Shown in pieces: positions 2,866 to 62,030 of a stretch of 64,000 bases of DNA. Below the pieces are notes generated by a model. The model did not search any database. It worked only from the letters and a program-made list of their open reading frames with translations, and had not been told where the DNA came from. The stretch is from positions 1 to 64,000 of IMG/VR virus record IMGVR_UViG_3300032180_000007; one strand, given 5' to 3'. The position numbers and the translations under genes are program-made. Position 1 is the stretch's first letter. Each line of letters opens with the position of its first letter. Source of the stretch: a virus.

Positions 2866-2879
2866 TTCTACGAAGTAAT
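2866..2879 (+). repeat. junction motif copy (variant TTCTACGAAGTAAT)
   Basis: Lies between the dcm stop and the 2858 start. Its orientation is opposite to the flanking genes. Confidence 0.6.
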
Positions 2880-4151
2880 TTTTACAATACGTCTTGCAAT
2901 CCACACGGCTATAGGCACCGCGAGACTGTTACCGATCATCCGATATCGCGCCGAGTCGCTGATTTGATTTCCCTGAGCATCCCATTTAGTCCAGTTATCA
3001 GGCAGGCCCATTAATCTCTCGCATTCTAACGGAGTCAGCCTCCGGACCCCAGACGGCGACGATATACCTATTTGCCCACCTCCATTCGGTCGGCTTTGAT
3101 TATGGCTCATCGCTCGCAGCGTGGGTGCTATTCCGCTGATATCTCTGCCGTCATCCTTGGCGCTGAATGCTATCAACTTTGACTCTTGCGATTCATTATC
3201 AGCATACTGTTTGGACGTTAGTGGAGCGGTTATTAGATTATGTGGATAAGAATCTTTTCCCGCGCTTCGACCATGGTGCTTTGAGAAAGAGGCAGTTATC
3301 GGAGAGGCAATCAAAGGCGTTCCCCTACCAGTCCCGTCTTCACTCGCGTCTGCACCTTCCGATGACAAGGCGGGCGTTATCAGAATTCCTGATTCAGCAT
3401 CACGTCCGTTAAAGCCACCTGGGTGTGCTTCAGGCGAAAGCGTACCGCTTATATATTCCTCTCCGTTTGGGTCGAACCGGTAGCCACTGCTAACAGAGCC
3501 GTTCGCAAGTGTTCTGGCAACTTTCTGCCCCGCTTCTCTGCTCGGCGCAGGATTCCAGCACACGCTTTCGGAGTCAAAAAGTACTTCGGCGCAACTTCCG
3601 GTTCCAAGACTTGCGACAATGAAGACACGCTCGCGTCTTTGTGCCAAACCGTCGTATTGAGCATCAAGCACCCGCCACGCGACGCAATACCCGAGTTCAA
3701 GAAGCCCAGAGATGACGGTTTCAAAATCGCTTGCCTCTTCCACTTCCCATTGACGAATACCCAAAGCGCTCGGCGGCGCTTCAACGGGAGACCAACTTGA
3801 TATAAGACCAGGGACGTTCTCCGCAACGACCCACCTTGGCGTAATCTCGCCAATAATGCGAAGAAACTCTGACCATAGCCCTGACCGCTCTCCAGCCAGA
3901 CCTTTGCGGAGTCCAGCCACGGACAGGTCTTGGCAGGGCCAACCCCCGCATATAACATCAACTGGTATGAGTTCTCTCGCGGTTGTGACATCCCTTATCC
4001 TCTCACGATCTGGATAGTGTCGTTCCAACACCCGATTGCAATTATTATCAATCTCTACTTGCCACAGACCGTGCATGCCAGCGCGGTCAAATGCTAAGTC
4101 AAAGGCGCCAATTCCAGTGAATAAACTCCCATAGGTAAGAGTCACAAACAC
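2868..4151 (-). CDS. dcm: DNA (cytosine-5)-methyltransferase
   Basis: Motifs LFTGIG (I), GGWPCQDLS (IV), ENVPGL (VI), QRRERVFIV (VIII), GNSLAVPI (X). Confidence 0.95.
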   Translation of the reverse strand: MFVTLTYGSLFTGIGAFDLAFDRAGMHGLWQVEIDNNCNRVLERHYPDRERIRDVTTARELIPVDVICGGWPCQDLSVAGLRKGLAGERSGLWSEFLRIIGEITPRWVVAENVPGLISSWSPVEAPPSALGIRQWEVEEASDFETVISGLLELGYCVAWRVLDAQYDGLAQRRERVFIVASLGTGSCAEVLFDSESVCWNPAPSREAGQKVARTLANGSVSSGYRFDPNGEEYISGTLSPEAHPGGFNGRDAESGILITPALSSEGADASEDGTGRGTPLIASPITASFSKHHGRSAGKDSYPHNLITAPLTSKQYADNESQESKLIAFSAKDDGRDISGIAPTLRAMSHNQSRPNGGGQIGISSPSGVRRLTPLECERLMGLPDNWTKWDAQGNQISDSARYRMIGNSLAVPIAVWIARRIVKITS

Positions 4152-4163
4152 TCCATACAGAGA

Positions 4164-4343
4164 TCACTGATTAGCAAGCTCTGAATCTGTCTTCCAATAG
4201 CTCGGCGATTCGCGGTCAAGTGCCGCAAGCTCATCACGGGTTTTCTGGACCGTACCAGCCGTCTTGTAATCATTACAGTAGAAAATTCCCTGCCAGCATG
4301 AAGCCTGAAGACAGGCCGAACATACCGTTATTAATTCACTCAT
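4164..4343 (-). CDS. hypothetical Cys-containing protein
   Basis: Start moved to the internal ATG (MSELITV), which follows GAGGTG. 59 aa. Confidence 0.55.
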   Translation of the reverse strand: MSELITVCSACLQASCWQGIFYCNDYKTAGTVQKTRDELAALDRESPSYWKTDSELANQ

Positions 4344-4353
4344 TTTGTCACCT

Positions 4354-4668
4354 CTAAGTCCGCCGCTCATATTTTTGGTGCTCCAATCTTGTCAGCAAAC
4401 AACATCCTTGATAGTGAATGCACCCAGTACCTTTATGTCCAGAGTAAGCGCAGGTACAGATGCCCTCGGCAATGTTCACCGTATAGATCACGCCCCGTTC
4501 TGTCAGACTCGGCACCTGGAAAGTATCGCCGCTGATCAGCCGCGCGGTCAGGGCTACCCGAGCAATGTCAATCGGGCGCTCACTCTCTGTGAGCCGGACA
4601 AGGGCCATGTAGCTGGCTGTCTCGTCGGCTGAGAGCTGAAGTCTAGGTCTTGCGGGTTTTCGGGGCAT
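4354..4668 (-). CDS. SWIM zinc-finger protein
   Basis: CTCAYSGHKGTGCIHY fits the CxCx(n)CxH SWIM pattern. Confidence 0.6.
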   Translation of the reverse strand: MPRKPARPRLQLSADETASYMALVRLTESERPIDIARVALTARLISGDTFQVPSLTERGVIYTVNIAEGICTCAYSGHKGTGCIHYQGCCLLTRLEHQKYERRT

Positions 4669-5056
4669 TGTCCTTACCGTATTCGGGGTGTTTCGAGGCT
4701 ATGTGTCGGGCAATCCTGCTATTCGAAAATGAACGGTTGCAGCAAGGACACACACCACGAGCAACGCGCACCCGCGTTTTCTTTATCGCTATTTGAGCTT
4801 GGCTAAGTTGTCGCCGTACAGAATCCGCCTCATTTTTAGCAAATTCCAACCGCTTGTTTGTATCGGCCAATTCTCGGCGCAACCGTTCGGTCTCATTTTC
4901 TGCGGGATAATATTCAGAGTGACCATTAGGGCAATAGAAAGTCTTGTGATCATCTCGTCGCTGTGTTGCGAAATAATCTGGTAATCCGTAAGGAATCCCA
5001 CATACACAACACTTCAATGTATGCATCACAAATTCTAGGCTGACCTTAGCACTCAT
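4643..5056 (-). CDS. zinc-finger / coiled-coil protein
   Basis: Start set at MSAKV. Contains CCVCG, CPNGH and CPCCN with a central heptad-like segment. Confidence 0.6.
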   Translation of the reverse strand: MSAKVSLEFVMHTLKCCVCGIPYGLPDYFATQRRDDHKTFYCPNGHSEYYPAENETERLRRELADTNKRLEFAKNEADSVRRQLSQAQIAIKKTRVRVARGVCPCCNRSFSNSRIARHIASKHPEYGKDNAPKTRKT

Positions 5057-5519: not shown

Positions 5520-5581
5520 ATCACCCTACAAGCACGTAACCGCATTGCTTTGAACTAGCGCGGTCACAGTAGGCACATCGT

Positions 5582-5902
5582 TTAGTCATCAGCCCATTCA
5601 TCACGATGTTTTTGTAATGTTGCCGTTTGGCGTTTTGATATACAGAAATTCAGATCCGCATCATAATAAGAGCCACAATACGGACAATGTACATGCTCGT
5701 TATCGTCAGGTAGATCATCTCTGGCAACATCAAACTCATCTCCGCAAATACACAAAGTAACCACCATAGATGCGGTTGAACATAAGTGCGTATCAAAGCA
5801 ATCTTCTTGGCGTTGTTTCATATGCTTTGTTCCTTTCGGACCATCCAATGTAGCCCATATATGAAGCGGGCATTGACACGAGACATTTTCTTTATTTCCC
5901 AT
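5582..5902 (-). CDS. Cys-rich hypothetical protein
   Basis: GGAGGAG lies upstream of the ATG. Contains CICGDE and CPYCG. Confidence 0.55.
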   Translation of the reverse strand: MGNKENVSCQCPLHIWATLDGPKGTKHMKQRQEDCFDTHLCSTASMVVTLCICGDEFDVARDDLPDDNEHVHCPYCGSYYDADLNFCISKRQTATLQKHRDEWADD

Positions 5903-6092
5903 TGCTCCTCCGCTTCTTTGACTTCGGACCAGGCTTGCGAGGCGCTGATTGTCTAAATGTTGCTAGGTCAGCTTCCGTAACATCGAACTCCCCTAAACGA
6001 TTCCTGCGCGCTTTCAGTCGTTTCGATCTAACGTGGTGCAGGACAGCCTGACGTGAGATATTCAAGAGGTTGGCGACTTCGCTGATTTTCAT
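5892..6092 (-). CDS. helix-turn-helix DNA-binding protein (excisionase/MerR-like)
   Basis: MKISEVANLLNISRQAVLHHV is a typical HTH. The tail is basic. Confidence 0.7.
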   Translation of the reverse strand: MKISEVANLLNISRQAVLHHVRSKRLKARRNRLGEFDVTEADLATFRQSAPRKPGPKSKKRRSNGK

Positions 6093-6316: not shown

Positions 6317-6324
6317 CGCGGGTG

Positions 6325-6559: not shown

Positions 6560-6574
6560 TAAAATCCTACTAAA

Positions 6575-7054
6575 ATGCCAATCTACATCTCACCCGAACA
6601 AGCGCGCCGTCACGGGCTCAGTCCCGGCGGGAAGCCCAAGCGACGGCGCAACCCACACCGCTGGGCTCCGTACAAGAGTCACGAAGAATGGGAGTTCTTT
6701 AACGGGGCGGGCTCGTTCATCCTGGCCGAGTTGCTGTGGGGTGTGGAGTCACCAACTGAATACGTCGCAGAGTATGAGCCGGAGACATTTGACCTGCTCG
6801 GGATTGGGTATACCCCAGATGCGCTGTTGACCCGGAACATATTGTGGAAGCCCCGCCTCCAGGCGATTGTTGAAATCAAGGGACCTCTGGCTTATGCGCG
6901 TGAGGGTCGGCGGTCTATTACCTGTCTCAAGCAGCTTGCTGCCAGCCGACCACACTATAAATGCATTCTCGCGGAATGCACCTTTAAGCGCGGTCATGCA
7001 TCCTGGCGGTTCTGGCTCGTTCCCGCAAACGGGCGTAGAAGAGAGTTGAAGTAA
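6575..7054 (+). CDS. PD-(D/E)xK-type nuclease-like protein
   Basis: YTPDALL then AIVEIKG matches the D..(D/E)xK core. Confidence 0.65.
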   Translation: MPIYISPEQARRHGLSPGGKPKRRRNPHRWAPYKSHEEWEFFNGAGSFILAELLWGVESPTEYVAEYEPETFDLLGIGYTPDALLTRNILWKPRLQAIVEIKGPLAYAREGRRSITCLKQLAASRPHYKCILAECTFKRGHASWRFWLVPANGRRRELK

Positions 7055-7705: not shown

Positions 7706-8293
7706 ATGGGGATGAAGCAATATAAGCTTATCTACGCCGATCCACCTTGGTGGTACAACCACCGCCTGAATGGTCATACCCGATTTGGACGCGGAGCTGG
7801 CTACTATCCGCTGATGAAGACAACGGAAATTTGCACGCTGCCTGTCCGAGAGCTAGCAGAAGATCGAGCCGTGCTTTTTCTGTGGGCAACATTTCCAACC
7901 CTGCAAGAAGCATTTAAGGTAATAGAAGCATGGGGATTTCGTTATTCAACCGTGGCATTTACTTGGATCAAGCTGAATCCCAAATCAAAATCTTATTTCT
8001 TCGGGACAGGTTATTGTACAAAGTCTAACGCCGAAATCTGTTTGTTGGCATGGAAGGGCCGGCCAATCAAACCTGCAACGGATACGATTAGTTCGTTGAT
8101 TGTATCGCCTCGACAATCGCATAGCAGAAAGCCTGATGAAGCACGAAAACGAATAGAGCAACTTTATCCGTCTCTTTCCAAAATCGAGCTTTTTGCACGT
8201 CCGATTACTGCAATGTGGCCGGTTGCAGAAGGTTGGAATGTGTGGGGAAATCAGATTGAAGAGCAAAACAAATCTCACTACACTAATTTGTGA
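7706..8293 (+). CDS. MT-A70-family N6-adenine DNA methyltransferase
   Basis: Catalytic motif IYADPPWWY (DPPW) and the typical size. Confidence 0.9.
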   Translation: MGMKQYKLIYADPPWWYNHRLNGHTRFGRGAGYYPLMKTTEICTLPVRELAEDRAVLFLWATFPTLQEAFKVIEAWGFRYSTVAFTWIKLNPKSKSYFFGTGYCTKSNAEICLLAWKGRPIKPATDTISSLIVSPRQSHSRKPDEARKRIEQLYPSLSKIELFARPITAMWPVAEGWNVWGNQIEEQNKSHYTNL

Positions 8294-8939: not shown

Positions 8940-9437
8940 TTACCTCACCGCCAGCAGCTTCACCGATAGATTCGGCTTGCCGCTATTCGGAATCTCGAAC
9001 GTAGATCCAGCAGTAATCACCTCCGCATGCTGCCGGCCGTCAGGCAGCTTCACCCATACCGTAGCCTCCTGAGCCACCCGCTCATGATAGACCAATACGT
9101 ACTTTGGCCGACGCTTCCCCGCAGCCAAGTCAGCCGCGAGGACCTTGTTGGCCCTCTCCAGGTTGGAGATGCGTCCCTGAGCAGCCTCAACATCATCCCT
9201 GAACCGGATCATCTTGGTCTGTAGATGCTGCGTGCGCCGTTCACGAACTAGAGCATCAGCATCATCGCGTATCAGGACTTTCCGCAGAGTTTCGTTGGCG
9301 TAATCTCTGTCGTCGGCCAAGCCTTTACGCTCGACCGCGAGCACCAGAATCACCACGCATGCCGCACAGAATAACACACTGGAGATGATTAGAAGTCGGG
9401 TCAAATAGTGAATACGTTCATATGGATTGTCTGTCAT
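8940..9437 (-). CDS. N-terminal TM, coiled-coil protein (lysis accessory?)
   Basis: Hydrophobic LLIISSVLFCAACVVILVLAV followed by a charged helical region. Confidence 0.65.
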   Translation of the reverse strand: MTDNPYERIHYLTRLLIISSVLFCAACVVILVLAVERKGLADDRDYANETLRKVLIRDDADALVRERRTQHLQTKMIRFRDDVEAAQGRISNLERANKVLAADLAAGKRRPKYVLVYHERVAQEATVWVKLPDGRQHAEVITAGSTFEIPNSGKPNLSVKLLAVR

Positions 9438-9926: not shown

Positions 9927-10272
9927 TGATTATTTCCTCAATCTTTTTGTCGCTTGCTTGAATGCGTATGCTTGCTTGGTTGATGAGTTGGTCCTTTGCC
10001 TCTATCTCAACCCGGAGTGCAACCGCAGCCTTTTTGTTGTCTTCGATCTGTTTGAGAAGAACCGCCTTCTCAGCTTCAGCGGTGGCGATTCTCTCATCAC
10101 TTGCCTTTATCCGCGCATCGGTTACAGCATCTTTTCTGTGGGCGATGAACTGTGTGACCTGGCTGTAGGTACCAAGGACGCCATTCATAGCGACGAGGCC
10201 GGTGATAACCAGGATGCCGAGCTTGAGCGGCAGGGAGAGAGCGCCGAACCAGGTTTTAGGAGTGTCTGTCAT
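9826..10272 (-). CDS. N-terminal TM coiled-coil protein (i-spanin-like topology)
   Basis: LKLGILVITGLVAMNGVL TM followed by a long charged helix. The 3' end overlaps the next ORF by 101 nt. Confidence 0.6.
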   Translation of the reverse strand: MTDTPKTWFGALSLPLKLGILVITGLVAMNGVLGTYSQVTQFIAHRKDAVTDARIKASDERIATAEAEKAVLLKQIEDNKKAAVALRVEIEAKDQLINQASIRIQASDKKIEEIISEFSKETDRIAALDDVAVEAELRRRLTEAGRLR

Positions 10273-10676
10273 GCCGGTTGCTGATCGGTTGGCTTATCGC
10301 TTTCTGCAAGTAACCTCAAAATAATATCGCCGTGGCATTTCGCACCTTCCTTGCACCAGCAAGCGATGTTTTTACCTCTTAAGTTTTCTAGCCATTTAGG
10401 ATTGAGCCTTGCTCTGGCTATTGCATATTCTTCAAATAGCTTAAGTGATTGTTCCAGGCTGGCAACTTGCTGATTACCAAAGTGAGGTGAATCACCGCGA
10501 GTCCACACGTTCCAATCCCCGCTAATATTCCTAAAATAAATGCCAACCTTGAACGGGTTTCCATACTTACCCGGCCTTGTTACGCACGCAACAGGCAAGC
10601 CATTGATGGCATGTGACTCATCCTGTAATCGAAACCCTTTTACGCGCTTTCGTTGGATTCTGCATGCCTTGCTCAT
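10269..10676 (-). CDS. DUF4326-family protein
   Basis: GKYGNPF and NIACWCKEGAKCHGDIIL signature motifs. Confidence 0.8.
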   Translation of the reverse strand: MSKACRIQRKRVKGFRLQDESHAINGLPVACVTRPGKYGNPFKVGIYFRNISGDWNVWTRGDSPHFGNQQVASLEQSLKLFEEYAIARARLNPKWLENLRGKNIACWCKEGAKCHGDIILRLLAESDKPTDQQPA

Positions 10677-11495: not shown

Positions 11496-11983
11496 CGCAA
11501 GTCCTGAGTATTAAATGCCAGCTCATAACGTTGCCGATTCTCTGACCAATAAACTCCCACAGGATAGGCCAACGGGGAATGAATGATTCTGATTTCAGAT
11601 GTACCCCAACTGTACCAGGGCATCCACCCCCGCTCTGTAATGCGCGTCCACACGAAATCAAACATCTCCGTGGGTGTCAGCTTCGCATCCAGGTAATAAC
11701 CACATTCCCTACAGACGCGAATCACGAACGTTGTTAGAGGGCCGATGTGATAGTCCTTGTTCCGCTTCCGACCGTGAGCAAAGCACCATCCAGTGCCGTT
11801 ACAGACAGGCACGGGCGCTACGGGCTGAATCCGCGCCTCGCAGACATCCAACAATCCTTCTGAGCGGAACATTGCCTCTAGCGGTCCTCGCAGGCTACGC
11901 CAGAGTGCTGTCCGTTTGCCTGTCGGGTTCAGCGGACTTCGCTTCATCGGCTTTTTACTTCGTAGTAAATTAGTTCGTTTCAT
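11468..11983 (-). CDS. NinG/Rap- or HNH-like nuclease candidate (weak)
   Basis: Basic N-terminus KKPMKRSPL and Cys/His clusters. An alternative start at 11947 lies just after the 16-nt motif. Confidence 0.55.
   Translation of the reverse strand: MKRTNLLRSKKPMKRSPLNPTGKRTALWRSLRGPLEAMFRSEGLLDVCEARIQPVAPVPVCNGTGWCFAHGRKRNKDYHIGPLTTFVIRVCRECGYYLDAKLTPTEMFDFVWTRITERGWMPWYSWGTSEIRIIHSPLAYPVGVYWSENRQRYELAFNTQDLRWSHVRGGG
11954..11969 (-). repeat. junction motif copy TTTACTACGAAGTAAA
   Basis: Exact 16-mer on the minus strand, 6 nt upstream of ATG 11947. Confidence 0.8.
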
Positions 11984-14073: not shown

Positions 14074-14277
14074 ATGGTGCCCGTGATGCAAAGCAGACAG
14101 AAACCATATACGCTCCGGCTTGATGAGCGCATCCTTAATGCGATGCGCAGGGAGGCCAAGCGAGAGCACCGGAGTCTTAACGAGCACGCGAATTATATCT
14201 TGCTGAATTATTATGGCTTGCTTGACGGGCAAAAACCAAAGACGGCCGGTAAGCGGTCGCGTTCTTCCTCCTCGTAA
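14074..14277 (+). CDS. ribbon-helix-helix (Arc/CopG-like) DNA-binding protein
   Basis: KPYTLRLDERILNAMRREAKREHRSLNEHANYIL is a typical RHH. The start is uncertain (14053, 14074 or 14086). TTGACT 14046-14051 and TAAGAT 14070-14075 lie upstream. Confidence 0.7.
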   Translation: MVPVMQSRQKPYTLRLDERILNAMRREAKREHRSLNEHANYILLNYYGLLDGQKPKTAGKRSRSSSS

Positions 14278-14340: not shown

Positions 14341-14952
14341 ATGAGAATCACATCTGAGCAATTGACAAAGCATAGGCAGTGGTTGAACGCTGAGGAGGGT
14401 GGTCAGCGCCTGGTCTTGCGAGGCGCGGACCTCAGAGGCGCGGACCTCAGAGGCGCGGACCTCAGAGACGCGGACCTCAGAGACGCGGACCTCAGAGACG
14501 CGGACCTCAGAGGCGCGGACCTCAGAGACGCGGACCTCAGAGGCGCGGACCTCAGAGACGCGGACCTCAGAGGCGCGGTCCTCAGAGACGCGGACCTCAG
14601 AGGCGCGGACCTCAGAGACGCGGACCTCAGAGGCGCGGTCCTCAGCTACCCTGATGATGTGCCGCTAATCGAAAATTTGCATAGCAAGCTGCTGACCGCC
14701 GTTGGTGAGGCGGGCGAGCATCTTGCAATGGGTGCTTGGCATACGTGCAAGACCACTCATTGCCGCGCGGGTCACGCCATAAATCTGGCTGGCGATGCTG
14801 GATACAAATTGGAAGACGCGGTCGGCTCAGCAACCGCTGGTGCTCTCATATATCACCGCGCTTATCCCGACCAAAAAATCCCCAACTTCTATGCAGCCGA
14901 TAAGGTTGCCTTGGCCGACATCAGAGCCTGCGCGGAAAGAGAGGCCAAGTGA
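14341..14952 (+). CDS. pentapeptide-repeat protein with globular C-terminal domain
   Basis: 15 consecutive A(D/V)LR(G/D) pentapeptides. AAAGGGAG RBS. Confidence 0.9.
14422..14646 (+). repeat. 15 tandem copies of a 15-bp unit G(G/A)CGCGG(A/T)CCTCAGA
   Basis: Units differ at only two positions. 14521-14580 and 14581-14640 are identical 60-mers. Confidence 0.95.
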
Positions 14953-16245: not shown

Positions 16246-17490
16246 GTATTAAAGCTCCAGTATCCAATTCCAAATAATGTATAGATCGTACAAAATCAGA
16301 TTAAAGCCGACAGCAAAACAACGTAGGGCGCTAACGACAATTCTCGCGCTGAGTTGCGACCTATACAATGCATCTCTTCAGGAGAGAAGAGATGCATGGG
16401 CGCTGCGGCGAAAAAGCATCAGCTACCAAGATCAAACTGCATCATTAACTAAGATTAGAGCGGAAGATGAAGACGTACGCACAGTTGCGGTAGATATCGC
16501 ACGTGAGCCATTGCGTCGTGTTGACCGTGCATTCAAAGCATTCATGCGCCGTTGTAGGGCGAAGGAAAAGCCGGGTTTCCCGCGCTTCCGATCAAAGGAA
16601 CGTTACGATTCATTCACATTCGGATTGCCGCGCATCATTGTCGACAGATTGGTGATTCCTAAGCTAGGACACGTCAAGTTCAAAGCAAGCCAAGTATTAA
16701 AGGGGACACTCAAGACGGCCACCATTATTCGTCGTCGCAATCGCTGGGAAGCGCGGATTATTTGTGATGTAGGACTAGCACCAAAAAAAATCGCCATCTC
16801 CACAGTGGTCGGTATTGACCTTGGCCTGACCAACTTCGTTACTCTTAGCAATGGCATAAGCATCGACAATCCGCACTGGCTTAAGCGTCACGAAGCAAAA
16901 ATTGCGCAGGCAAATCAGGCCCTTGCGCGAAAGCAGCGAGGGTCTAACAATCGCGTTCGAGCAAGGCTTGCGTTGAACCGTGCCTACGAACGAGTGGTCG
17001 ATGCGCGCCGTAACTTTATTCATCATGTTAGTAAATATCTGGTCACTAATTACAATTTGATTGCTTATGAGGATCTCAATATCAAAGGGATGGTTCAGAG
17101 CAATTTTAGTAAATCAATCAACGACGCAGCGTGGGGTGAGTTGATATGGCAAATATCGTACAAGGCTGAGAGTGCCGGGCGATGGGCCGTACCAGTAAAT
17201 CCCAAGAACACCAGTCAGATGTGTTCGACATGTGGCACGATAGTTAAGAAAACACTCGCTAACCGCGTACATATCTGCCCATGCGGTCTAACCTTGGACC
17301 GAGACCATAACGCTGCAATAAACATCCTGACTGTAGGGCTCGGTAAGAGCCTTGAGCAGTGACGACTGCCAGAATGTATACTGACCAAGATAAGTATATA
17401 ATTACCTTCCCCGTGGATCGAGAATCAGGGGACCTGCCATGGCGCAGCAAGTTGAGTCAATCCAAAGTAGGCAGGCTCCCCTGAGAATTT
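16240..17490 (+). mobile_element. tnpB-only IS200/IS605-family element (ends approximate)
   Basis: The left border is placed after CTGAT 16235-16239. A right-end hairpin lies at 17426-17438/17470-17483. No tnpA is present. Confidence 0.45.
16277..17362 (+). CDS. tnpB: TnpB (OrfB) RNA-guided RuvC nuclease
   Basis: VVGIDLG (RuvC-I), AYEDLNIKG (RuvC-II), CSTCG..CPCG zinc finger, LDRDHNAAINI (RuvC-III). Confidence 0.95.
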   Translation: MYRSYKIRLKPTAKQRRALTTILALSCDLYNASLQERRDAWALRRKSISYQDQTASLTKIRAEDEDVRTVAVDIAREPLRRVDRAFKAFMRRCRAKEKPGFPRFRSKERYDSFTFGLPRIIVDRLVIPKLGHVKFKASQVLKGTLKTATIIRRRNRWEARIICDVGLAPKKIAISTVVGIDLGLTNFVTLSNGISIDNPHWLKRHEAKIAQANQALARKQRGSNNRVRARLALNRAYERVVDARRNFIHHVSKYLVTNYNLIAYEDLNIKGMVQSNFSKSINDAAWGELIWQISYKAESAGRWAVPVNPKNTSQMCSTCGTIVKKTLANRVHICPCGLTLDRDHNAAINILTVGLGKSLEQ

Positions 17491-17507: not shown

Positions 17508-17831
17508 ATGAAGTTACTTCGATCAATTCCTATCGCATTTGCCCTGAGCGCACTCAGTATAAGTGCACTCTTAATTCTAGTACTGTATGGAGGAGTTTAT
17601 CTCACGAAATCCAATGCTCCTACTTTAAGCGACAATCAAACCCTGATCTTCTATGATGAACAGGGGGTCGCCCATAGCGTCAAGGTAGCAGCAATGGCGA
17701 ATAATCCAGAGGGCGGCTTAACTCCCGTCTGGTTAATCACCACTTATGATCATGGAAAGAAAGATAGTGCGATGGGCATGCATCCCGCCGGCTCCTGCAA
17801 GACAATTTGGGTAATTATGGAGGTGGAATGA
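17508..17831 (+). CDS. membrane-anchored/secreted hypothetical protein
   Basis: N-terminal hydrophobic IPIAFALSALSISALLILVLYGG. GGAGG RBS. Confidence 0.65.
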   Translation: MKLLRSIPIAFALSALSISALLILVLYGGVYLTKSNAPTLSDNQTLIFYDEQGVAHSVKVAAMANNPEGGLTPVWLITTYDHGKKDSAMGMHPAGSCKTIWVIMEVE

Positions 17832-20198: not shown

Positions 20199-20485
20199 GA
20201 TTTAGATTTTTTCCTTGTCTCAATACTTTGTTTGATTGCATTCCCCAACTCTTCGGTGGCTCTTAAATGTACGGTTTCTGTCTCTTTAAGCGCCACCATA
20301 AAAGCGTCTCGGTCACTCCTTCGCTCTACCTTTTCGTCTTTGAGATGCTCCTTTAGAACCGTGACTGCTTCGTCCTGGGCTTCTCTGTTAGCTTTGAAAA
20401 GGTAGCGGATGACTCCACCGAAAGAAATGATAACGAACAACGCGAGTGCGAGTGCATAACCCCAGTCTTTTGGGTCTGGGTTCAT
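20195..20485 (-). CDS. single-TM hypothetical protein
   Basis: N-terminal TM YALALALFVIISFGGVI followed by a charged helix. ATGA coupling. Confidence 0.65.
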   Translation of the reverse strand: MNPDPKDWGYALALALFVIISFGGVIRYLFKANREAQDEAVTVLKEHLKDEKVERRSDRDAFMVALKETETVHLRATEELGNAIKQSIETRKKSKS

Positions 20486-47860: not shown

Positions 47861-48516
47861 TCTCCAAGCCCCTCCAAATCTGTTTCCTCGAAGCCAAGCC
47901 CGCGAAGTTTCTCCATGGTTTCCTTGTGGGAGAGTCCTGCCTCACGAGATTTCTTGTAGCAGACTTTTGCGATTAGCACTGGGTCCGCAGGAATTGATTG
48001 AGTTTGTATCGGGCCACCTTCGGGACCGCTCAACTCTTGCACTTGTTTGTTGTATTGTGGGAAGCGCATTTTGATCAGCGCTTCCGCCGCTCGCCAGTCT
48101 CCATTCTCATAGCCAATGATCTTTCCGTCCTCGTCAAGAATGGGTTTTCCACGGCCCGCAGACTGTATGATATGGAGGTTTTGAGCGAGTCCAGAATAGG
48201 CTGCTTCATGCACCTTGTTGAAGAATTGGACATAGGGATTGCCGTCACCTATCAGCTCTTCTGGTATATGAAACTCCTGTCCGCGAGTCGGTAGCTGTAT
48301 TTGATGTTCCTTGAGAATATTCTCAGCCGTTCTCATCCAGGCGCGAAAAGTATCGTAGCTGATTCCGCTTGCGGCACAAGCATCGTGATACTTCATTCCA
48401 ACACGAATATTTTTGATCAGCTTCTCGACGATGGGAGTTTGAAATAGTGAAGGCCGGCCTACCTTTCTTGTCGGTCTGCGATCATGCGCCACAAGAGGTT
48501 TTTTAGATTTCGGCAT
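47857..48516 (-). CDS. terS: terminase small subunit candidate
   Basis: N-terminal basic region plus HTH-like VGMKYHDACAASGISYDTFRAW. Sits upstream of terL. Confidence 0.65.
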   Translation of the reverse strand: MPKSKKPLVAHDRRPTRKVGRPSLFQTPIVEKLIKNIRVGMKYHDACAASGISYDTFRAWMRTAENILKEHQIQLPTRGQEFHIPEELIGDGNPYVQFFNKVHEAAYSGLAQNLHIIQSAGRGKPILDEDGKIIGYENGDWRAAEALIKMRFPQYNKQVQELSGPEGGPIQTQSIPADPVLIAKVCYKKSREAGLSHKETMEKLRGLGFEETDLEGLGE

Positions 48517-48532
48517 TGCGTTCTATTGTACT

Positions 48533-48910
48533 TCAGAAGTCAACTGGACGAGCCTTGTTGACTGCACACCGAGCATAAATAGCTACGGCGTTCTGATTCC
48601 TAACAAACGAATCACCCTCATTAGGATCAATAATCAATATGGGGTACTGACGCCAATAAATCGTGAGTCCGTCAGGATCATTACCAAATCGGTCAGTAAA
48701 GGCAGCATACCATTTGCCAAATAAATCAACACAATCAATTGGCTGATTTATATCGAAATGCTGAACAGGAGATTTGATCATCTCTATCAGCCATTGTCCA
48801 CTACCCGAATAAACAATATCTGACGCTATGTGTACGAAGGATTGATTCCATTGTTTCAGTTGGGGTATGTCAATGAGTACCTCGATTCTATGGTTCATAC
48901 TAACTCCCAA
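48533..48910 (-). CDS. hypothetical protein
   Basis: 125-aa ORF. Confidence 0.6.
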   Translation of the reverse strand: MGVSMNHRIEVLIDIPQLKQWNQSFVHIASDIVYSGSGQWLIEMIKSPVQHFDINQPIDCVDLFGKWYAAFTDRFGNDPDGLTIYWRQYPILIIDPNEGDSFVRNQNAVAIYARCAVNKARPVDF

Positions 48911-48921: not shown

Positions 48922-49146
48922 TTATTGATTGCGATACTTCGCGAAGTTCTGAGCGGCCCAGACCAAATACTCTTCAAGCTCTCGTATCAATTTTGTCTCG
49001 ATTATATGATCAGATGAGTTGTTGATCACAGGCTGAACTATCTTCACGCCTTTGATCATCCTGATCGCATTCAAGAGATACTCCGCGTCATCTATGCGAA
49101 TCTCGCGATCAAAGATCACAGTGCAACCGTTGATTCTATCGGTCAT
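48922..49146 (-). CDS. hypothetical protein
   Basis: 74-aa ORF, the first after the terminator. Confidence 0.6.
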   Translation of the reverse strand: MTDRINGCTVIFDREIRIDDAEYLLNAIRMIKGVKIVQPVINNSSDHIIETKLIRELEEYLVWAAQNFAKYRNQ

Positions 49147-49169: not shown

Positions 49170-49215
49170 CAAAAATAGGGGCGGGTGCTGTCCCTGACAC
49201 CCGCCCTCTTTGTTG
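49170..49215. terminator. bidirectional intrinsic terminator
   Basis: GGGCGGGTG 49179-49187 pairs with CACCCGCCC 49198-49206. T-rich tracts flank it on both strands. Confidence 0.7.
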
Positions 49216-49355: not shown

Positions 49356-49934
49356 CTACTCTTTCTGTTTGATCGGCGCAAACGGGGGCGTCGATCCCGG
49401 TGAATCGCTGGGCAGCGTCTCGTCTGGGTGCTCCTGTCTGTACAAGCGCCGCTCCTTCCGGCTAATCACGCCATCCTCGTTCGTATCAGCAGGATGAACC
49501 TGCTGCTTCTCTGGCTCAGTCGGTGTGACCGGCTCGGCTTGCGGAGGCGAGCCCCCTGGTGCATTCGTCCCCCATTCGGGGGGCGGCTCTATACCAGTGA
49601 ATGCCGCTATTCGTTTACGCTCAGCCGCTGCCAACTCCGAGTGAGGGTCTCTCGTCTGCTCCTCTTCAACGTATAGCAAGCCGTGCGGCATGCGACCTAA
49701 CGACCAATCTTCCCCGGCCCAACCGGGGTTCAGCCGGGTCAGTGCTGGAGTATTACCCGCCCCGGCAAGAATCACCTCCTCAACTCGGTGGCCCTTCGCG
49801 TCCGAATCCACTTGCTGATCGCGGATTACATGGATAACAACCGCGCTCGGCGTCCCGTCTTCCGCGAATCTGTGGATCGTGGCAGGGTTTGTGCGCCCAT
49901 CGAAAAACACCCAAATATTTTGTTTAGTTGACAT
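49356..49934 (-). CDS. hypothetical protein with EF-hand-like loop
   Basis: 192 aa. DTNEDGVISRKE matches the DxNxDGxIxxxE calcium-loop spacing. Pro-rich linker. Confidence 0.65.
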   Translation of the reverse strand: MSTKQNIWVFFDGRTNPATIHRFAEDGTPSAVVIHVIRDQQVDSDAKGHRVEEVILAGAGNTPALTRLNPGWAGEDWSLGRMPHGLLYVEEEQTRDPHSELAAAERKRIAAFTGIEPPPEWGTNAPGGSPPQAEPVTPTEPEKQQVHPADTNEDGVISRKERRLYRQEHPDETLPSDSPGSTPPFAPIKQKE

Positions 49935-49945: not shown

Positions 49946-49960
49946 TTTACTTCGTAGAAA
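49946..49960 (-). repeat. junction motif copy (variant TTTCTACGAAGTAAA)
   Basis: On the minus strand upstream of GGAG and ATG 49934. Confidence 0.7.
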
Positions 49961-49966
49961 AAATTC

Positions 49967-51863: not shown

Positions 51864-52636
51864 TCCTTCAGGCCGCACGCGAGGCCCTCAAACTTGTCCG
51901 AGTTCAAACCGATTCGATCCTTGTGCCTTATTCATGTGGGAAAGATTCAAGTGTGGTTCTTGATCTATGTGCAGACATCTTTGATCGAGTTCAACCCTAT
52001 TATTTTTACCGGGTGCCGAACCTAGATATTGCAGAGCGAATGCTGAAGCGCGCCGAGCATCGCTACGGAGTAAGCATCATTCGTTTGCCAGCCCCCGATC
52101 TATCGGAGGTATTCAAGCACGCTCTTTTACAGCCTCACTGGGCCGCGCTTGACGAGATTCCGAAAGTCACCGGGACCGATATGGAAGATTTTATTCGCCG
52201 ACAGACTGGCATAGATTGGATTGCAAGCGGCAAACGTTGTTCAGATTCTCTTCCGAGACGTGCAATGCTCCGACAATGCGGAGGGTGTAATTTCAAGAGT
52301 CGGATTATCTACCCGATCTGGTTGTGGAATCGCCCTGACGTTCTGTCGTATCTTAGGCTGCATCGCATTCCTAAACCACCGGAGTTCGGCAGAAAAGAAC
52401 AAGGCGGGATTGATTTTCACATTGAGACATTTCGATATTTGAAGAAGTATTATCCAGAAGATTGGAAACGATACCTGGAGGTATTCCCTTATGCGGAAGC
52501 GTGCATCATTGCAGCCGATCAACGTAGAGACCGTGAGCAGACAAGCAATCAAACCTCACCCGAAGAATCCCCGTTTGATCAACGACGCAGCCCGAGCAGA
52601 ACTGGAGCGCGGTCTCGACAAGTACGGCCTGCTTGA
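51860..52636 (+). CDS. PAPS-reductase-family (PP-loop) protein
   Basis: VPYSCGKDSSVVLDL PP-loop variant. The C-terminal tail after about 52490 looks like read-through. Confidence 0.8.
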   Translation: MILQAAREALKLVRVQTDSILVPYSCGKDSSVVLDLCADIFDRVQPYYFYRVPNLDIAERMLKRAEHRYGVSIIRLPAPDLSEVFKHALLQPHWAALDEIPKVTGTDMEDFIRRQTGIDWIASGKRCSDSLPRRAMLRQCGGCNFKSRIIYPIWLWNRPDVLSYLRLHRIPKPPEFGRKEQGGIDFHIETFRYLKKYYPEDWKRYLEVFPYAEACIIAADQRRDREQTSNQTSPEESPFDQRRSPSRTGARSRQVRPA

Positions 52637-53402
52637 AACCATCACTGTTAATCGCACGACGGGATTTATTTTGTCCGGCCATCAGCGAGTCGAGTGGCTT
52701 GATCGAAAAAATAAGCACCGCGATTACGATCTGACGGTCAGCTATGTTGATATCGATCCCAGAGATGAAGTCAACGTAATGGTCCGGCTGAACAACGAGC
52801 GGGCACAAGGCGAATACGACCTTGATATGCTCCACACCTCTTTGCTTGAGGGCGAGCTTGATACCGATCTTGCAGGTATAGACGTGGTCCAGCTTGAGAC
52901 TTGGTTCCCTGATGATTCAGAACTGTCGTGGTTATTTTCTGACGCACCAGAGTCGGTCGTCAGAGATGCCGAAGTGCTGAATAAGATAGTCGAGGGACGC
53001 AAGGGAGTGCACACCAAGAGAGATAGCAGTGCCGGCGGGAACCTCGATACCGAAACTTATTTTGTGGTGGTTTTTCCTACCAGATTTGATAAGGAAAAAT
53101 TCTTGCTTTCGCGAGGAATCGCGAAGCAGGAGAGATACATTGCCTACCAGCGTTTATTCGACCAGCAAGCTTCCAATGGGACCGGGAAGAGGCCCGGCAT
53201 ACCGCGGAAGGGCGCGGGGGTATCGAGAGCAGCAGGCTCGGTCAGGAGCCAGCAGAACGGACCGCGCGCGAATGGGTCCGGTGGACACTCAGCTAACGGC
53301 AGACAGTCCCGCACCGCAGTGACGCCGAGAATGCAGCCGAAGGCCAAGTCTTCGTCGCGAGGTACTTCTATGCCCCGTTCTTCAAGAAAGGCTCGGCCTT
53401 GA
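52491..53402 (+). CDS. ParB-like nuclease-domain protein
   Basis: IKPHPKNPRL and GFILSGHQRVEW motifs. GGAGG RBS. The 3' third is low-complexity and antisense to the ASCH gene. Confidence 0.75.
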   Translation: MRKRASLQPINVETVSRQAIKPHPKNPRLINDAARAELERGLDKYGLLETITVNRTTGFILSGHQRVEWLDRKNKHRDYDLTVSYVDIDPRDEVNVMVRLNNERAQGEYDLDMLHTSLLEGELDTDLAGIDVVQLETWFPDDSELSWLFSDAPESVVRDAEVLNKIVEGRKGVHTKRDSSAGGNLDTETYFVVVFPTRFDKEKFLLSRGIAKQERYIAYQRLFDQQASNGTGKRPGIPRKGAGVSRAAGSVRSQQNGPRANGSGGHSANGRQSRTAVTPRMQPKAKSSSRGTSMPRSSRKARP

Positions 53403-53545
53403 ACGAGACTGTCGCGGCTATGGCCAGCCACGATAGCCAGTGAGCCCCGATAGCGGGTTGACCATCCCCGGTTTTCGATGCGCTTCGGGCCGTGAATGAT
53501 TGCCCAGGCCCAGGGTTGATGAATGACAAGTCCTCTTATGATCAT
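53144..53545 (-). CDS. ASCH-domain protein
   Basis: VIHQPWAWAIIHGPKRIENRGW and C-terminal FRGMPGLFPV resemble the ASCH fold. Confidence 0.75.
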   Translation of the reverse strand: MIIRGLVIHQPWAWAIIHGPKRIENRGWSTRYRGSLAIVAGHSRDSLVQGRAFLEERGIEVPRDEDLAFGCILGVTAVRDCLPLAECPPDPFARGPFCWLLTEPAALDTPAPFRGMPGLFPVPLEACWSNKRW

Positions 53546-53682
53546 TTTTTTACTTCGTAGTAAACTTCGAATTTGATCATGTAATCACACCCGATCACGC
53601 TACACCAGATGCGATCACCGGACATAAACATTGGTTTGCCGCAGTGCTCCGCACACACGGTTTGTTCGTGTTCTCTGTCCAT
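53542..53682 (-). CDS. Cys-rich micro-protein (46 aa)
   Basis: ATGA overlap with the ASCH start. CAEHCG..CSVIGC. The 3' end carries the 16-nt motif. Confidence 0.45.
   Translation of the reverse strand: MDREHEQTVCAEHCGKPMFMSGDRIWCSVIGCDYMIKFEVYYEVKK
53549..53564 (-). repeat. junction motif copy TTTACTACGAAGTAAA
   Basis: Exact 16-mer on the minus strand, 3 nt upstream of the ASCH ATG 53545. Confidence 0.8.
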
Positions 53683-57020: not shown

Positions 57021-57120
57021 TTCTCTCTCCCGTCACTCGTTGCTCTTGTCACGATTAGAACTATAGCGCACGTGCGAGAGATTGTCAACAGAAAAAGTCA
57101 CGTACGCTCGAAGTATTTTC

Positions 57121-57155
57121 TTGACGAGAGAGTATCTATATTGTATATAGATACT
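57121..57155 (+). promoter_or_regulatory. sigma70-like promoter overlapped by a 25-bp palindrome
   Basis: TTGACG 57121-57126, a 17-nt spacer, TATATA 57144-57149. The palindrome AGTATCTATAT-tgt-ATATAGATACT spans 57131-57155 and ends 1 nt before the ATG. Confidence 0.55.
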
Positions 57156-57353
57156 ATGCACGACACGCTCACCGTCCACGAGGCCGCAAGCATAGTAGGC
57201 GTCTCCGCCGACCGGATGCGCCAGTTCATCCGTGAGGGGCGGATTCCGCACCAAAAATTCGGCCCCGTCTATACCGTGCAACGAAAGCACTTAGCGCGCC
57301 TGCGAAACCGAAAGAATGGTCGCCCTAAAAAATCTCTCACGCCCACGAAATAG
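57156..57353 (+). CDS. helix-turn-helix DNA-binding protein
   Basis: LTVHEAASIVGVSADRMRQFIREGRIP is an HTH. The ATG lies 7 nt after the -10 with no SD, so the mRNA is a leaderless candidate. Confidence 0.7.
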   Translation: MHDTLTVHEAASIVGVSADRMRQFIREGRIPHQKFGPVYTVQRKHLARLRNRKNGRPKKSLTPTK

Positions 57354-57438
57354 TTATTGACAATCTCTCGCGTCCGTGCTAGAGTATTACTGTGATGAGG
57401 GCGAGCGCGACAGGGCTAACACGCACAGCGAGGACAGT

Positions 57439-58790: not shown

Positions 58791-58890
58791 GCACGAGGAT
58801 TCGCAGGGGAGCAGGGCCAACCCGTTCATTCACCACTGGTAGGCTAAAGACGGGAGAGCTTAAACCTGGCCGCTGCTCCCTTCGCGATAA

Positions 58891-60103: not shown

Positions 60104-60171
60104 ATCAGCAAAGCTGAGCGTGATGGGGATGTAACCAGGCACCTCTACAATGATTTGGTCAGAGTTCAAAA

Positions 60172-60187
60172 ATTACTACGAAGTAAA
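60172..60187 (+). repeat. junction motif copy ATTACTACGAAGTAAA
   Basis: 8 nt upstream of ATG 60196. Confidence 0.8.
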
Positions 60188-60195
60188 AAGGGGAT

Positions 60196-61455
60196 ATGAT
60201 GAGTTCAAACAGTTTACAACGAATTGAGCAACAAGCAATTGCTTATCAGGAGGATGAACTTTCCATTGAGCAAGTACTTGCCCAGGTGCAGAAAATCCAG
60301 TTGGTCATGGAGCGGGTGATGAAAAGCGGCGAGCACTTTGGAGTTATACCGGGAACAAATAAACCGACGCTCCTAAAGCCTGGTGCTGAAAAGTTGTGCC
60401 TTACGTTTCGACTCGACCCACAGTATGAATCCACTGAAACCTATGACGGCGCGCACCTGACCGTGAAAAGCCGGTGTACCCTCTACCATATTACTACGGG
60501 GAATCGTCTTGGAAGCGGCGAGGGCTCCTGCTCGACTAAAGAGGCTAAATACGCCTATAGAAAAGGCGAGCGCACATGTCCGGGCTGTGGTGCTGCGGCG
60601 ATAATCAAGGGCAAAGCCGAATATGGCGGCGGATGGGTTTGTTTCGGTAAGAAGGGCGGCTGTGGTGCCAAGTACGAGGATGGCGATCAGTCCATCGAAG
60701 GGCAGCAAACTGGTCGTATTGCAAACCCTGACCTAGCTGATCAATACAATACCGTTCTGAAAATGGCGAACAAGAGATCGTTGGTTGCTGCGGTTCTTAA
60801 TGTAACTGCCGCCTCCGACATATTCACTCAGGATTTGGAAGAGCAGGAACGACCTAGCGGTTCCGAACCGGCGCATGATCCGCTTGCTGAATGGCGCAAT
60901 AGATTTGCCCAAGCAATGACGGCAGACGAATTCACTGCTCTGATTGCTGAAGCCAGAACGGTGCCAGCCGCAATTCTCAAACAAGTCGGAAAGCTGCTCG
61001 GACAAGCAGCAAAAGATAGAGGGCTCAAACTCAGCACGGATAAGACCAAATTCGAATTGCAGAATGAAGCTACCAAATCAACCGCGCAGTCTCCCGCTGA
61101 ACCCGCTGAGCCAGAGCCGCTCGTTAAACAGCCGGTGATATTCCCCACCGGACCGAGTTCGGGGCAGCCCGTGCCGGCCGGCACGCAACAAACAGAATCT
61201 TGGCTGCGAGACATCGCTGCTGACGAAACCGCTTGGGAGTGCACCCATAAGCGCACTCGTGAGAGGCTCATGATTAAGCTCCAGGCTGGCTTCGCTGCCG
61301 GTCTAAGCAAATCTGAAATGGTGGGCGATAGGCGGGTTATGTCGCTCACAAAAGAACAGATTGAATTGTTGGTGGCAGAACTGGAGCACAAGGTCACTGA
61401 GCGGGAGACCGCGAAAGCGGCTCCTGCTGCTACTTTGCCGGGGGTGAAAGTATGA
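60196..61455 (+). CDS. putative ssDNA-binding/annealing-type protein with inserted zinc ribbon (function uncertain)
   Basis: 419 aa. Contains LLKPGAEKL, CPGCG..CGAKY and NTVLKMANKRSLVAAVLNV. Sits next to the nuclease. Confidence 0.7.
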   Translation: MMSSNSLQRIEQQAIAYQEDELSIEQVLAQVQKIQLVMERVMKSGEHFGVIPGTNKPTLLKPGAEKLCLTFRLDPQYESTETYDGAHLTVKSRCTLYHITTGNRLGSGEGSCSTKEAKYAYRKGERTCPGCGAAAIIKGKAEYGGGWVCFGKKGGCGAKYEDGDQSIEGQQTGRIANPDLADQYNTVLKMANKRSLVAAVLNVTAASDIFTQDLEEQERPSGSEPAHDPLAEWRNRFAQAMTADEFTALIAEARTVPAAILKQVGKLLGQAAKDRGLKLSTDKTKFELQNEATKSTAQSPAEPAEPEPLVKQPVIFPTGPSSGQPVPAGTQQTESWLRDIAADETAWECTHKRTRERLMIKLQAGFAAGLSKSEMVGDRRVMSLTKEQIELLVAELEHKVTERETAKAAPAATLPGVKV

Positions 61456-61598
61456 CAAAAGAAGAACGCGATGTTGTTGTTAAGGCGGCTCGCGAATTCC
61501 CACCCAATCATTGGAAATATTGGCGGGCTCATGGCCACGACTGACCAGCTACCGCGCTCGCGAAGTTTCGCGGCGAACCAATTTATTTGGATTTGGAG

Positions 61599-61733
61599 AT
61601 GTCCGACATAGGCCAGGTCGTACTTGTTAGAGCCTTTTGGGAAATTGATCAGGAGTTTCGTGATTACGTAAAGTTATTAGACCGCGACCCGCTGAAGTGC
61701 GCGGAAGAACTCCTGCGCCGAATCAAAGTATGA
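61599..61733 (+). CDS. micro-protein (44 aa), doubtful
   Basis: ATGA overlap with the next gene. The RBS spacing is poor. Confidence 0.3.
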   Translation: MSDIGQVVLVRAFWEIDQEFRDYVKLLDRDPLKCAEELLRRIKV

Positions 61734-62029
61734 AACTACTGCGCCTCATTCGCCGGCTGCTCTCGGTAGACCACCCGGTCCCGCTCGGGCAGCCGCACTA
61801 CGCGCCGGTGTTGATTCTGTGCCTGGACTGCGAGCCCTGTGAGACTGAGCCCGCCTGGTCGCGACAGTACGGCGCTCGGCGCCTGCTGATCAGACGTGCT
61901 GGCGTTTGGTGCTGCTCGACCTGTGGAAGTCGTGAATGGTTGCTCGCGTCATCCGCGGTGCCAGCCGTGGACGTACAGCGGGTTCTGGCTGCAATCGAGT
62001 GGAGAGAGTCAATGTTTACTACGAAGTAA
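61730..62029 (+). CDS. Cys-rich hypothetical protein
   Basis: Start set at MKLLRL. Contains CLDCEPC and CCSTCG. Confidence 0.55.
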   Translation: MKLLRLIRRLLSVDHPVPLGQPHYAPVLILCLDCEPCETEPAWSRQYGARRLLIRRAGVWCCSTCGSREWLLASSAVPAVDVQRVLAAIEWRESMFTTK

Positions 62030-62030
62030 A
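62015..62030 (+). repeat. junction motif copy TTTACTACGAAGTAAA
   Basis: Exact 16-mer, 14 nt upstream of ATG 62045. Confidence 0.8.

Follow-up and report, generated by a model that had tools for sequence, protein, structure and literature searches.

A 16-nucleotide (nt) repeated sequence, TTTACTACGAAGTAAA, was identified immediately ahead of gene starts in a 64,000-nt stretch of viral DNA (IMG/VR record IMGVR_UViG_3300032180_000007, positions 1 to 64,000; referred to here as the window). The repeats are real, non-random, and conserved. They form near-perfect palindromes with negligible capacity to fold as RNA, and palindromes with the same arms recur in distant phages encoding remote homologues of a 219-amino-acid (aa) window protein with a predicted ParB/Noc-type DNA-binding fold. 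The explanation that we tentatively favor, which falls only a little short of being probable, is that the repeats are a genome-wide set of operators on duplex DNA for a ParB-fold protein devoid of a CTPase domain, acting inside operons.

The window was searched on both strands with mismatches tolerated, and the chance level was taken from 100 shuffles. Exactly six sites of the TTTACTACGAAGTAAA family were found with up to three mismatches on the better strand, all of them with zero to two, compared with 0.32 expected; none of the 100 shuffles equaled the observed count of six. The copies were as follows.

11954-11969, minus strand: exact TTTACTACGAAGTAAA, ending 6 nt ahead of the ATG at 11947
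53549-53564, minus strand: exact, ending 3 nt ahead of the ATG of the ASCH gene (53545)
62015-62030, plus strand: exact, ending 14 nt ahead of the ATG at 62045, with a GGAGG Shine-Dalgarno sequence in between
60172-60187, plus strand: one mismatch (A at position 1), 8 nt from the ATG at 60196
49946-49961, minus strand: one mismatch (T at position 4), ending 11 nt ahead of the ATG at 49934, with GGAG in between
2864-2879, plus strand: two mismatches, ending 5 nt ahead of the ATG at 2858

Non-random copies at six gene junctions had been proposed from an initial reading of the sequence without database searches (the sequence-only reading), and the shuffles bear this out. Four of its coordinate pairs were exact, while 49946-49960 and 2866-2879 were slightly short of the actual 49946-49961 and 2864-2879. 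It also described the last copy as inverted relative to its neighbors, and 2864-2879 indeed lies on the plus strand amid minus-strand genes. The window corresponds to a circularly permuted form of a ∼67.1-kb metagenomic phage contig (ENA ERZ27257219 k141_2695911; loci L056 and L058), and the 3.1 kb outside it contains a DEAD-box helicase gene and no motif copy within four mismatches. A genome-wide pattern search, as proposed in the sequence-only reading, was run on the reconstructed 67,097-bp genome and gave six sites with two or fewer mismatches; the next best matches had four, and the motif family is therefore sharply bounded. A longer repeat unit was looked for in the window, and no conservation between copies was found beyond the 16 bp.

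All six copies end 3 to 14 nt upstream of an ATG (2858, 11947, 49934, 53545, 60196, and 62045), so that the proximity claimed beforehand for five of them holds for each. By our own estimate, the chance of a random site ending within 3 to 14 nt of a start is ∼2%, given ∼115 genes in 67 kb. The caveat concerns the 11947 gene, for which the public annotation places the start 36 nt farther upstream, at an in-frame ATG (11983) that forms an ATGA overlap with the upstream stop; with that start, the 11954 copy would constitute codons 5 to 10 of the gene. Where copies overlap coding sequence they are read in different frames, as TTT ACT ACG AAG TAA at 62015, as gTT TAC TAC GAA GTA AAa at 53549, and, in reverse, as ATT ACT TCG TAG at 2864. 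The use of three reading frames, noted already in the sequence-only reading, indicates selection on the nucleotides. The 62015 copy supplies the TAA stop of the upstream 99-aa gene and the 2864 copy the TAG stop of a C5 DNA methylase gene, and the 53549 copy lies inside the last codons of an upstream 51-aa gene, with an ATGA overlap. The 60172 copy is located in an intergenic gap of 92 nt, at a distance of 68 nt from the stop codon upstream and directly before the gene for a 419-aa phrog_10048 protein, and the 49946 copy is followed by the gene for a 192-aa ORFan. The motif itself contains no GGAG; a Shine-Dalgarno sequence, where present, sits between motif and ATG, and at three window sites there is none in that interval.

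Some additional observations were made on the genes behind these copies. Directly after the 192-aa gene, a strong hairpin resembling an intrinsic terminator (49179-49206, minus strand; 10 pairs, 8 of them G-C, followed by a T-run) separates it from the terS-proximal genes. The ASCH gene (53144-53545, minus strand; phrog_3193, E = 7e-31; Pfam ASCH) overlaps by ∼260 nt a 303-aa plus-strand open reading frame (ORF; 52491-53402) without a family match, and the public gene call lists the latter and omits ASCH. The N-terminal half of the 419-aa protein (60196-61455, plus strand) belongs to a very large family of unknown function (phrog_10048; 6,107 matches) with a best identity of 81% over ∼50% of its length, and its C-terminal half appears to be unique. 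The label "annealase-like" for this gene is a putative one taken from the sequence-only reading.

The motif is a contiguous 8+8 palindrome of TTTACTAC and GAAGTAAA with a central CpG. Fourteen of its 16 positions are palindromic, the symmetry being broken only at positions 7 and 10. This is a more economical and, in our view, better parse than the earlier one, in which a 6-bp stem enclosed an asymmetric ACGA core that gave the motif polarity. Orientation was co-directional with transcription at five of the six sites, which is not significant (two-sided P of ∼0.22), and in relatives of the phage the corresponding ratios were 3:2 and 4:2, so the claimed polarity was not sustained. The proposed hairpin fared no better. 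The isolated RNA hairpin of the consensus reached −1.9 kcal/mol, and the seven window sites folded (the six copies and the 48527 site described below) ranged from 0 to −1.9 kcal/mol, with no fold at all (0 kcal/mol) for the 2864, 49946, and 48527 variants. In 70-nt context folds, the hairpin was part of the minimum-energy structure at two of six sites, and no z-score was significant. Among ∼10 deviations, none was compensatory; those in the window, at positions 1, 4, and 16, each break a pair.

Known classes of expression signal were likewise not found at the sites. No Rfam family matched at its gathering score anywhere in the window. An intrinsic terminator was rejected because the A+T-rich stem runs into A's rather than a U-tract, and none of the sites was listed in a terminator scan. 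No promoter-like site in a sigma-70 scan coincided with a motif copy, and a sigma-70 promoter at the sites was rejected (mean best score of 6.75, compared with 6.2 ± 1.7 at random positions). The scan did reveal a divergent near-consensus pair, TTGACA-17-TATAGT at 57060-57088 (minus strand) and TTGACA-17-TAGAGT with an upstream TG at 57357-57385 (plus strand), which is probably an early control region. No motif copy occurs at these divergent promoters, and the small ORFs flanking them gave no family matches.

Comparison with a related phage, L064, led to a further site near the terS-like gene, and a weak, possible eighth copy was found ∼400 nt upstream of it.

48527-48543, minus strand: diverged seventh copy in a 17-bp (8+1+8) form, TTGACTTCTGAAGTACA, ending 10 nt ahead of the terS-like ATG at 48516
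48936-48947: possible eighth copy, weak, a perfect palindrome ACTTCGCGAAGT with the same core and a spacing of 2, near the 3′ end of the gene at 48922-49146

The former matches the 17-bp form found in L064, and the degenerate relative suspected beforehand at 48527-48542 is therefore real. Half-site spacings of 0, 1, and 2 are all present in the window. Exact ACTTC-N0-2-GAAGT occurred twice (0.17 expected), and TTACTT-N2-3-AAGTAA with up to two mismatches occurred 11 times (2.5 expected). Both terS-like orthologues have the element at the gene's 5′ end, upstream of the ATG in the window and at codons 13 to 18 in L064; its retention outside as well as inside the coding sequence argues for a nucleotide-level function tied to the gene start. 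Half-site cores in everted order (GAAGT and then ACTTC) were also seen in the first codons (17508-17535, ATGAAGTTACTTCGA) of the gene at 17508-17831 (plus strand), probably by chance.

The idea in the sequence-only reading that a protein binds the repeats as DNA appears reasonable, and the most likely binder is encoded next to the inverted copy.

2199-2858, minus strand: gene for the candidate binder, an orphan protein of 219 aa whose DNA-binding domain is of the ParB/Noc/Spo0J type, with a motif copy directly ahead

This gene comes after the C5 DNA methylase gene (2868-4151), and its assignment as the cognate partner of the motif is suggested by adjacency and by co-occurrence in L064 and a second distant phage, L067. 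The 219-aa protein was an ORFan in a word-indexed search; exhaustive HMMER searching recovered 35 remote homologues with 23 to 31% identity. It matched Pfam HTH_ParB with an E value of 2.7e-4, just under the cutoff, and gave weak matches to Caulobacter ParB chains in the PDB and to the NCBIfam Noc model. Across the family, weak HTH_ParB matches were found in 16 of 36 members and DUF1016_N in 7 of 36, and two or three members appear to be fused to DNA methyltransferase domains (one MT-A70 and one N6_N4_Mtase by Pfam, the third being our reading of the alignment only). AlphaFold2 with the family alignment gave a model with a pLDDT of 84.6; the single-sequence model (pLDDT of 41) was useless. In a Foldseek search of the PDB, the best 22 matches of the model were all ParB/Noc/Spo0J proteins. 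Relative to the target, the best was the site-bound DNA-binding domain of Noc (6y93_A; target-normalized TM-score of 0.75), with 104 columns superposed on a domain of 105 residues. Well-superposed matches (root mean square deviation of ∼3 Å or less) spanned ∼70 to 105 columns, the size of the DNA-binding domain, and longer ones had deviations of 6 to 14 Å. In BFVD, the model resembled only uncharacterized and DUF3102 phage proteins. This protein is a better candidate than the products of the genes at 14074, 57156, and 5892 put forward in the sequence-only reading, of which only that at 5892-6092 had a DNA-binding family match, a weak one to HTH_17.

Contigs encoding remote homologues of the 219-aa protein formed the comparison set; L301 and L302 were too short to inform. 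The closest homologue, P0242 (∼30% identity), is encoded in L064 and L065. These contain, in ∼13 kb, five copies of a 17-bp palindrome, TTACTTC[C/G]GAAGTAA, that is, TTTACTTC[C/G]GAAGTAAA, whose arms are identical to those in the window. Four of the five end 0 to 16 nt ahead of a start codon.

L064/L065: copy 16 nt ahead of the ATG of the SSB gene, with the upstream TAA within the motif
L064/L065: copy 5 nt ahead of an ATG
L064/L065: copy 2 nt ahead of the ATG of a PAPS-reductase-like gene
L064/L065: copy directly adjoining the ATG of a small ORF, the first in the P0242 operon
L064: copy at codons 13 to 18 of the terS-like gene

L067, which encodes P0248, contains six identical copies of TTACTTTGCAAGTAA in 20.7 kb, at junctions or start regions, and one of them ends 9 nt ahead of the small Cys/His-rich ORF heading the P0248 operon. 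Copies inside coding sequence were found at 2916 in L064 and at 14699 in L067. In L064/L065 (five copies) and L067 (six copies), the motif lies mostly at gene starts; L066 and L303 lack it. Over the three motif-bearing phages, ∼15 of 18 sites end 0 to 16 nt ahead of a start codon. The arms are constant, and the central bases and orientation vary (3:2 in L064/L065 and 4:2 in L067, relative to transcription). The same 5-mer arm, 1 of 1,024 possible, was seen twice independently, and such matching by chance is unlikely. Genes following the motif in relatives encode SSB, an RNase T-like exonuclease, an AAA_25 ATPase, and a PAPS-reductase-like protein. In ∼290 control loci, selected for single motif matches or for terL or annealase homology, none had three or more copies, and none encoded the ParB-like family.

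The one close relative of the phage is a 24.5-kb Logan contig from SRR9648402. No DNA-level relative turned up in INPHARED or in Escherichia coli genomes, and its terL protein shares no more than 38% identity with that of any phage isolate and no more than 56% with any metagenomic protein. An exact 16-mer scan of IMG/VR returned 41 single matches, consistent with chance; scans with the L064-type and L067-type motifs returned single sites only, and protein-seeded scans of IMG/VR and JGI metagenomes gave no close relative. Other repeats were present in the comparison set. L067 contains a 12-mer, TAATGTTAGACT, distinct from the palindrome, four times (9244, 14220, 17539, and 17989), of which at least that at 9244 closely precedes the start of a gene (9266). 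L303 contains a different 17-bp (8+1+8) palindrome, ATATTTCGCCGAAATAT, at 820-836 and 7008-7024, both intergenic, with its core again at 20339; it may be an analogous operator of another specificity.

The surroundings of the ParB-like gene are also partly conserved.

4354-4668, minus strand: SWIM-like gene, paired with a small Cys/His-rich ORF at 4164-4370

Such a pair, a SWIM-like gene and a small zinc-ribbon-like ORF, comes before the ParB-like gene in L064, L066, and L067 as well as in the window. The pair is directly upstream in the three relatives, and in the window the C5 methylase gene (2868-4151) lies in between. Beside or close to the ParB-like gene there is a DNA methyltransferase gene in the window, L065, L067, and L303. 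The set of DNA modification genes in the window is unusually rich, comprising, besides the C5 methylase, a gene with a weak Mom-like match (212-676), an MT-A70 adenine methylase gene (7706-8293), and a DUF4326 gene (10269-10676).

These data can be drawn together in the operator model. A dimeric phage protein would bind double-stranded DNA, each monomer reading a TTACT(T) half-site of TTTACTAC-GAAGTAAA. The operator directly before the 2199-2858 gene would mediate autoregulation, and the others would mark the 5′ boundary of a small regulon comprising the ASCH, annealase-like, and terS-like genes and three ORFans. The bound protein may act as a local roadblock, or as a gate, for RNA polymerase on its way into the downstream cistron, affecting the coupled ribosome as well, and the sign of regulation would be repression rather than activation. 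Several observations agree with this. The conserved, non-covarying arms, the independent decay of half-sites, the mixed orientation, and the negligible hairpin energy fit a symmetric dimer on duplex DNA and not an RNA structure. The location of the sites inside operons, abutting starts and away from sigma-70 promoters, suggests action after transcription initiation. In each of the three motif-bearing phages, a copy lies ahead of the ParB-fold gene or of the operon containing it, which is the classic mark of a DNA-binding protein that controls its own expression, and the identity of the downstream genes suggests a regulon of DNA metabolism and packaging.

A number of points weigh against this model. 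The link between protein and motif is correlative only. L066 (P0245; 12.6 kb) and L303 (P0252; 20.9 kb) encode the family without the motif. The motif-bearing phages also share terS-like, SWIM-like, HD-domain, and 171-aa and 127-aa ORFan genes, and consequently they are not independent samples, and shared ancestry could explain the co-occurrence. The half-site spacing is 8+8 in the main window form and 8+1+8 in relatives, a 1-bp shift that is awkward for one rigid dimer. With regard to the protein, the N-terminal CTPase (ParB/Srx) domain of ParB was undetected and there was no ParBc Pfam match, the HTH_ParB sequence matches were below the Pfam cutoff, and the Foldseek E values were modest (0.05 to 0.5). 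The proximity to start codons is very tight, also in two long gaps (60172 in the window and 6843 in L064) where the motif hugs the ATG, as predicted for a translation-level element, and since there are no promoters at the sites, the DNA-level regulatory logic is conjecture.

The tight proximity to starts leads to the main rival, an mRNA-level translational operator, either a hairpin or single-stranded, acting through an RNA-binding protein or by itself in the manner of T4 RegA or RNA-phage coat-protein operators. Its best argument is the distance of 0 to 16 nt to the start at ∼15 of 18 sites, together with the location beside the start and not the stop in the two long gaps, the three window sites without a Shine-Dalgarno sequence between motif and ATG, the ATG start of all six window genes, and the palindromy retained in all three phages, which always makes a hairpin possible. 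We nonetheless regard it as unlikely. The hairpin reaches no more than −1.9 to −3.6 kcal/mol and, by prediction, does not form at three of the seven window sites folded, the context-fold z-scores are not significant, no Rfam model matches, and the arms are conserved rather than covarying, without a compensatory change, over proteins of ∼30% identity. Inverted copies would present different loops (ACGA/UCGU, CCG/CGG, and UGC/GCA) at equally precise positions, and at 2864, ahead of the regulator gene, the sense RNA retains four of six pairs. A DNA site for a conserved host factor recruited at gene starts was also considered, for a host with promoters of the TTGACA/TATAAT type. A slowly evolving host protein would explain why the half-site is conserved while the phage proteins have diverged to ∼30% identity; also in favor, L066 and L303 have the ParB-like family but not the motif. 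To our knowledge, no bacterial operator consensus matches the motif (LexA, TyrR, the LacI family, NarL, CpxR, and TrpR were compared by eye only). The copy ahead of the ParB-like gene, or of its operon, in each motif-bearing phage points instead to autoregulation, and the central bases and spacing vary between phages, leaving a host factor improbable.

The remaining rivals received less weight. The analogy to mycobacteriophage stoperators, drawn in the sequence-only reading, would make the repeats polar roadblocks for a temperate-phage immunity repressor, and it has in its favor the multiple copies in short intra-operon junctions, none at a promoter, five of six of which are co-oriented with transcription. 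It breaks down on the near-palindromic site, on an orientation bias that is not significant in the window, with mixed orientation in relatives, and on the lack of a copy at the divergent early promoters (57060-57385). Moreover, no integrase, immunity repressor, or partition gene was present among the proteins scanned, and copies number only six to eight; this role is quite improbable. Junction microhomology for module exchange between related phages, a linker role such as has been proposed for lambdoid linker sequences and the promoter-early stem-loops of T4, would account for the same 14- to 15-bp core at gene boundaries of mosaic, distant phages beside non-orthologous genes, and exonuclease-like and annealase-like genes beside two copies encode a pair that might use the motif. 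It gives no reason for the palindromy, for the copy ahead of the ParB-like operon in three phages, or for retention inside the L064 terS-like coding sequence, and we consider it very improbable. A phage-specific promoter, another suggestion of the sequence-only reading, here taken as one read by an RNA polymerase or sigma factor specific to the phage, seems hardly credible. Copies do lie upstream of genes, mostly co-oriented, and are sharply conserved over 16 bp; however, the start codons are too close (0 to 16 nt downstream, one overlapping the motif) to leave room for a leader, sigma-70 signals are not enriched upstream, the sites are palindromic and occur in both orientations, and some lie within coding sequence (L064, 2916; L067, 14699). 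The largest ORF encodes 701 aa, and neither an RNA polymerase nor a sigma factor turned up among the proteins scanned.

With the operator model retained as the favored one, the motif was compared with characterized repeats. In its position, the motif comes closest to the start-associated sequence (SAS) of Cluster K mycobacteriophages, an element of 13 bp and of unknown function present in 11 to 19 copies per genome, 3 to 7 bp before mostly ATG starts of non-structural genes, with one inverted copy per genome and conservation across subclusters beside unrelated genes (PMC3203893). The present motif resembles it in lying within a few nucleotides of starts, in often containing the upstream stop, and in having one inverted copy. 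The SAS, however, is asymmetric and contains the Shine-Dalgarno core AGGAG, whereas the present motif is a 16- to 17-bp palindrome without one, has a mixed orientation in relatives, and is accompanied by a candidate cognate DNA-binding protein.

By architecture, the closest analogues are the Cluster O repeats and the ParB-parS, Noc-NBS (Noc-binding site), and KorB-OB sites. The Cluster O repeats are 17-bp dyads, TGTTCGGNNNCCGAACA, with more than 30 copies per genome that are not closely tied to translation starts; they were predicted to bind a dimeric protein with a role other than in transcription initiation, the same conclusion as that drawn here, no binder was proposed, and the parB-like proteins there were treated only as genome-stability functions (PMC4351075). 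Shared with them (7-3-7 in that case) are the palindromy, the invariant arms around a variable center, the lack of a meaningful orientation, and the location mostly at junctions or gene 5′ ends and not at promoters, and the present motif differs in its fewer copies, its sequence, and its tie to starts. The parS site (TGTTTCAC-GTGAAACA) and the Noc-binding site (TATTTCCC-GGGAAATA) are 16-bp 8+8 palindromes with a central C-G step (PMC7383237), and KorB, a ParB-family global regulator of its replicon, reads the OB core TTTAGCGGCTAAA (PMC11790492). A contiguous palindrome of 13 to 16 bp, centered on a C-G step and repeated several times per replicon, is common to these sites and the present one, as is a ParB-type helix-turn-helix domain, predicted here in the 2199-2858 protein. 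KorB is also autoregulated. Unlike ParB, Noc, and KorB, the window protein has no detected CTPase (ParB/Srx) domain, no ParA-type partner ATPase turned up in ∼70 proteins scanned or in precomputed Pfam calls, and its sites have a different sequence and abut start codons rather than promoters or an origin. Cluster A stoperators are asymmetric 13-bp sites, strictly oriented, that share their sequence with the early-promoter operator and are bound by the immunity repressor (summarized in PMC4351075). They are thought to stop elongating RNA polymerase, and operator copies in short intra-operon junctions are a common trait; the present site is 14/16 palindromic, is not strictly oriented, and is missing from the early promoter. 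We regard the motif as a genome-wide, operator-like phage junction repeat that is a member of none of the families compared.

Two other features of the window were recorded. A TnpB-type gene (16277-17362, plus strand; Pfam OrfB_IS605, Cas12f1-like TNB, and HTH_OrfB_IS605; phrog_506 "transposase," E = 5e-98) is preceded by a direct repeat of ∼13 bp, GCCGGTTGAATCT, at ∼16063 and ∼16225, and no TnpA gene was seen; no motif copy lies near this element, and a link to the motif was rejected. A pentapeptide-repeat protein, a class whose members can mimic DNA, is encoded at a divergent junction (14341-14952, plus strand; Pfam Pentapeptide, E = 2e-29).

Junction repeats have been cataloged in phages since 2011 (the SAS and the Cluster O repeats), in papers that give neither binder nor mechanism. 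Here, a specific candidate protein accompanies such a repeat, and the prediction is clear: a dimer with ParB-type helix-turn-helix domains would bind an 8+8 palindrome. The half-site is conserved across phages whose proteins are only ∼30% identical. Confirmation of the prediction would give the ParB/Noc DNA-binding fold a new, CTP-independent role in regulation. For annotation, the lesson is that the motif accounts for several start-codon ambiguities. The fuller proposition remains doubtful to us, namely, that a previously undescribed phage regulatory system is at hand, in which a CTPase-less ParB/Noc-fold protein and start-abutting operators with TTACT half-sites, set in a SWIM-like, zinc-ribbon-like, and methyltransferase module and conserved across very divergent uncultivated phages, gate DNA metabolism and packaging genes inside operons at the transcription-translation interface. 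If true, it could serve as a model of mechanism for the start-associated and dyad repeats of actinobacteriophages, which are so far unexplained.

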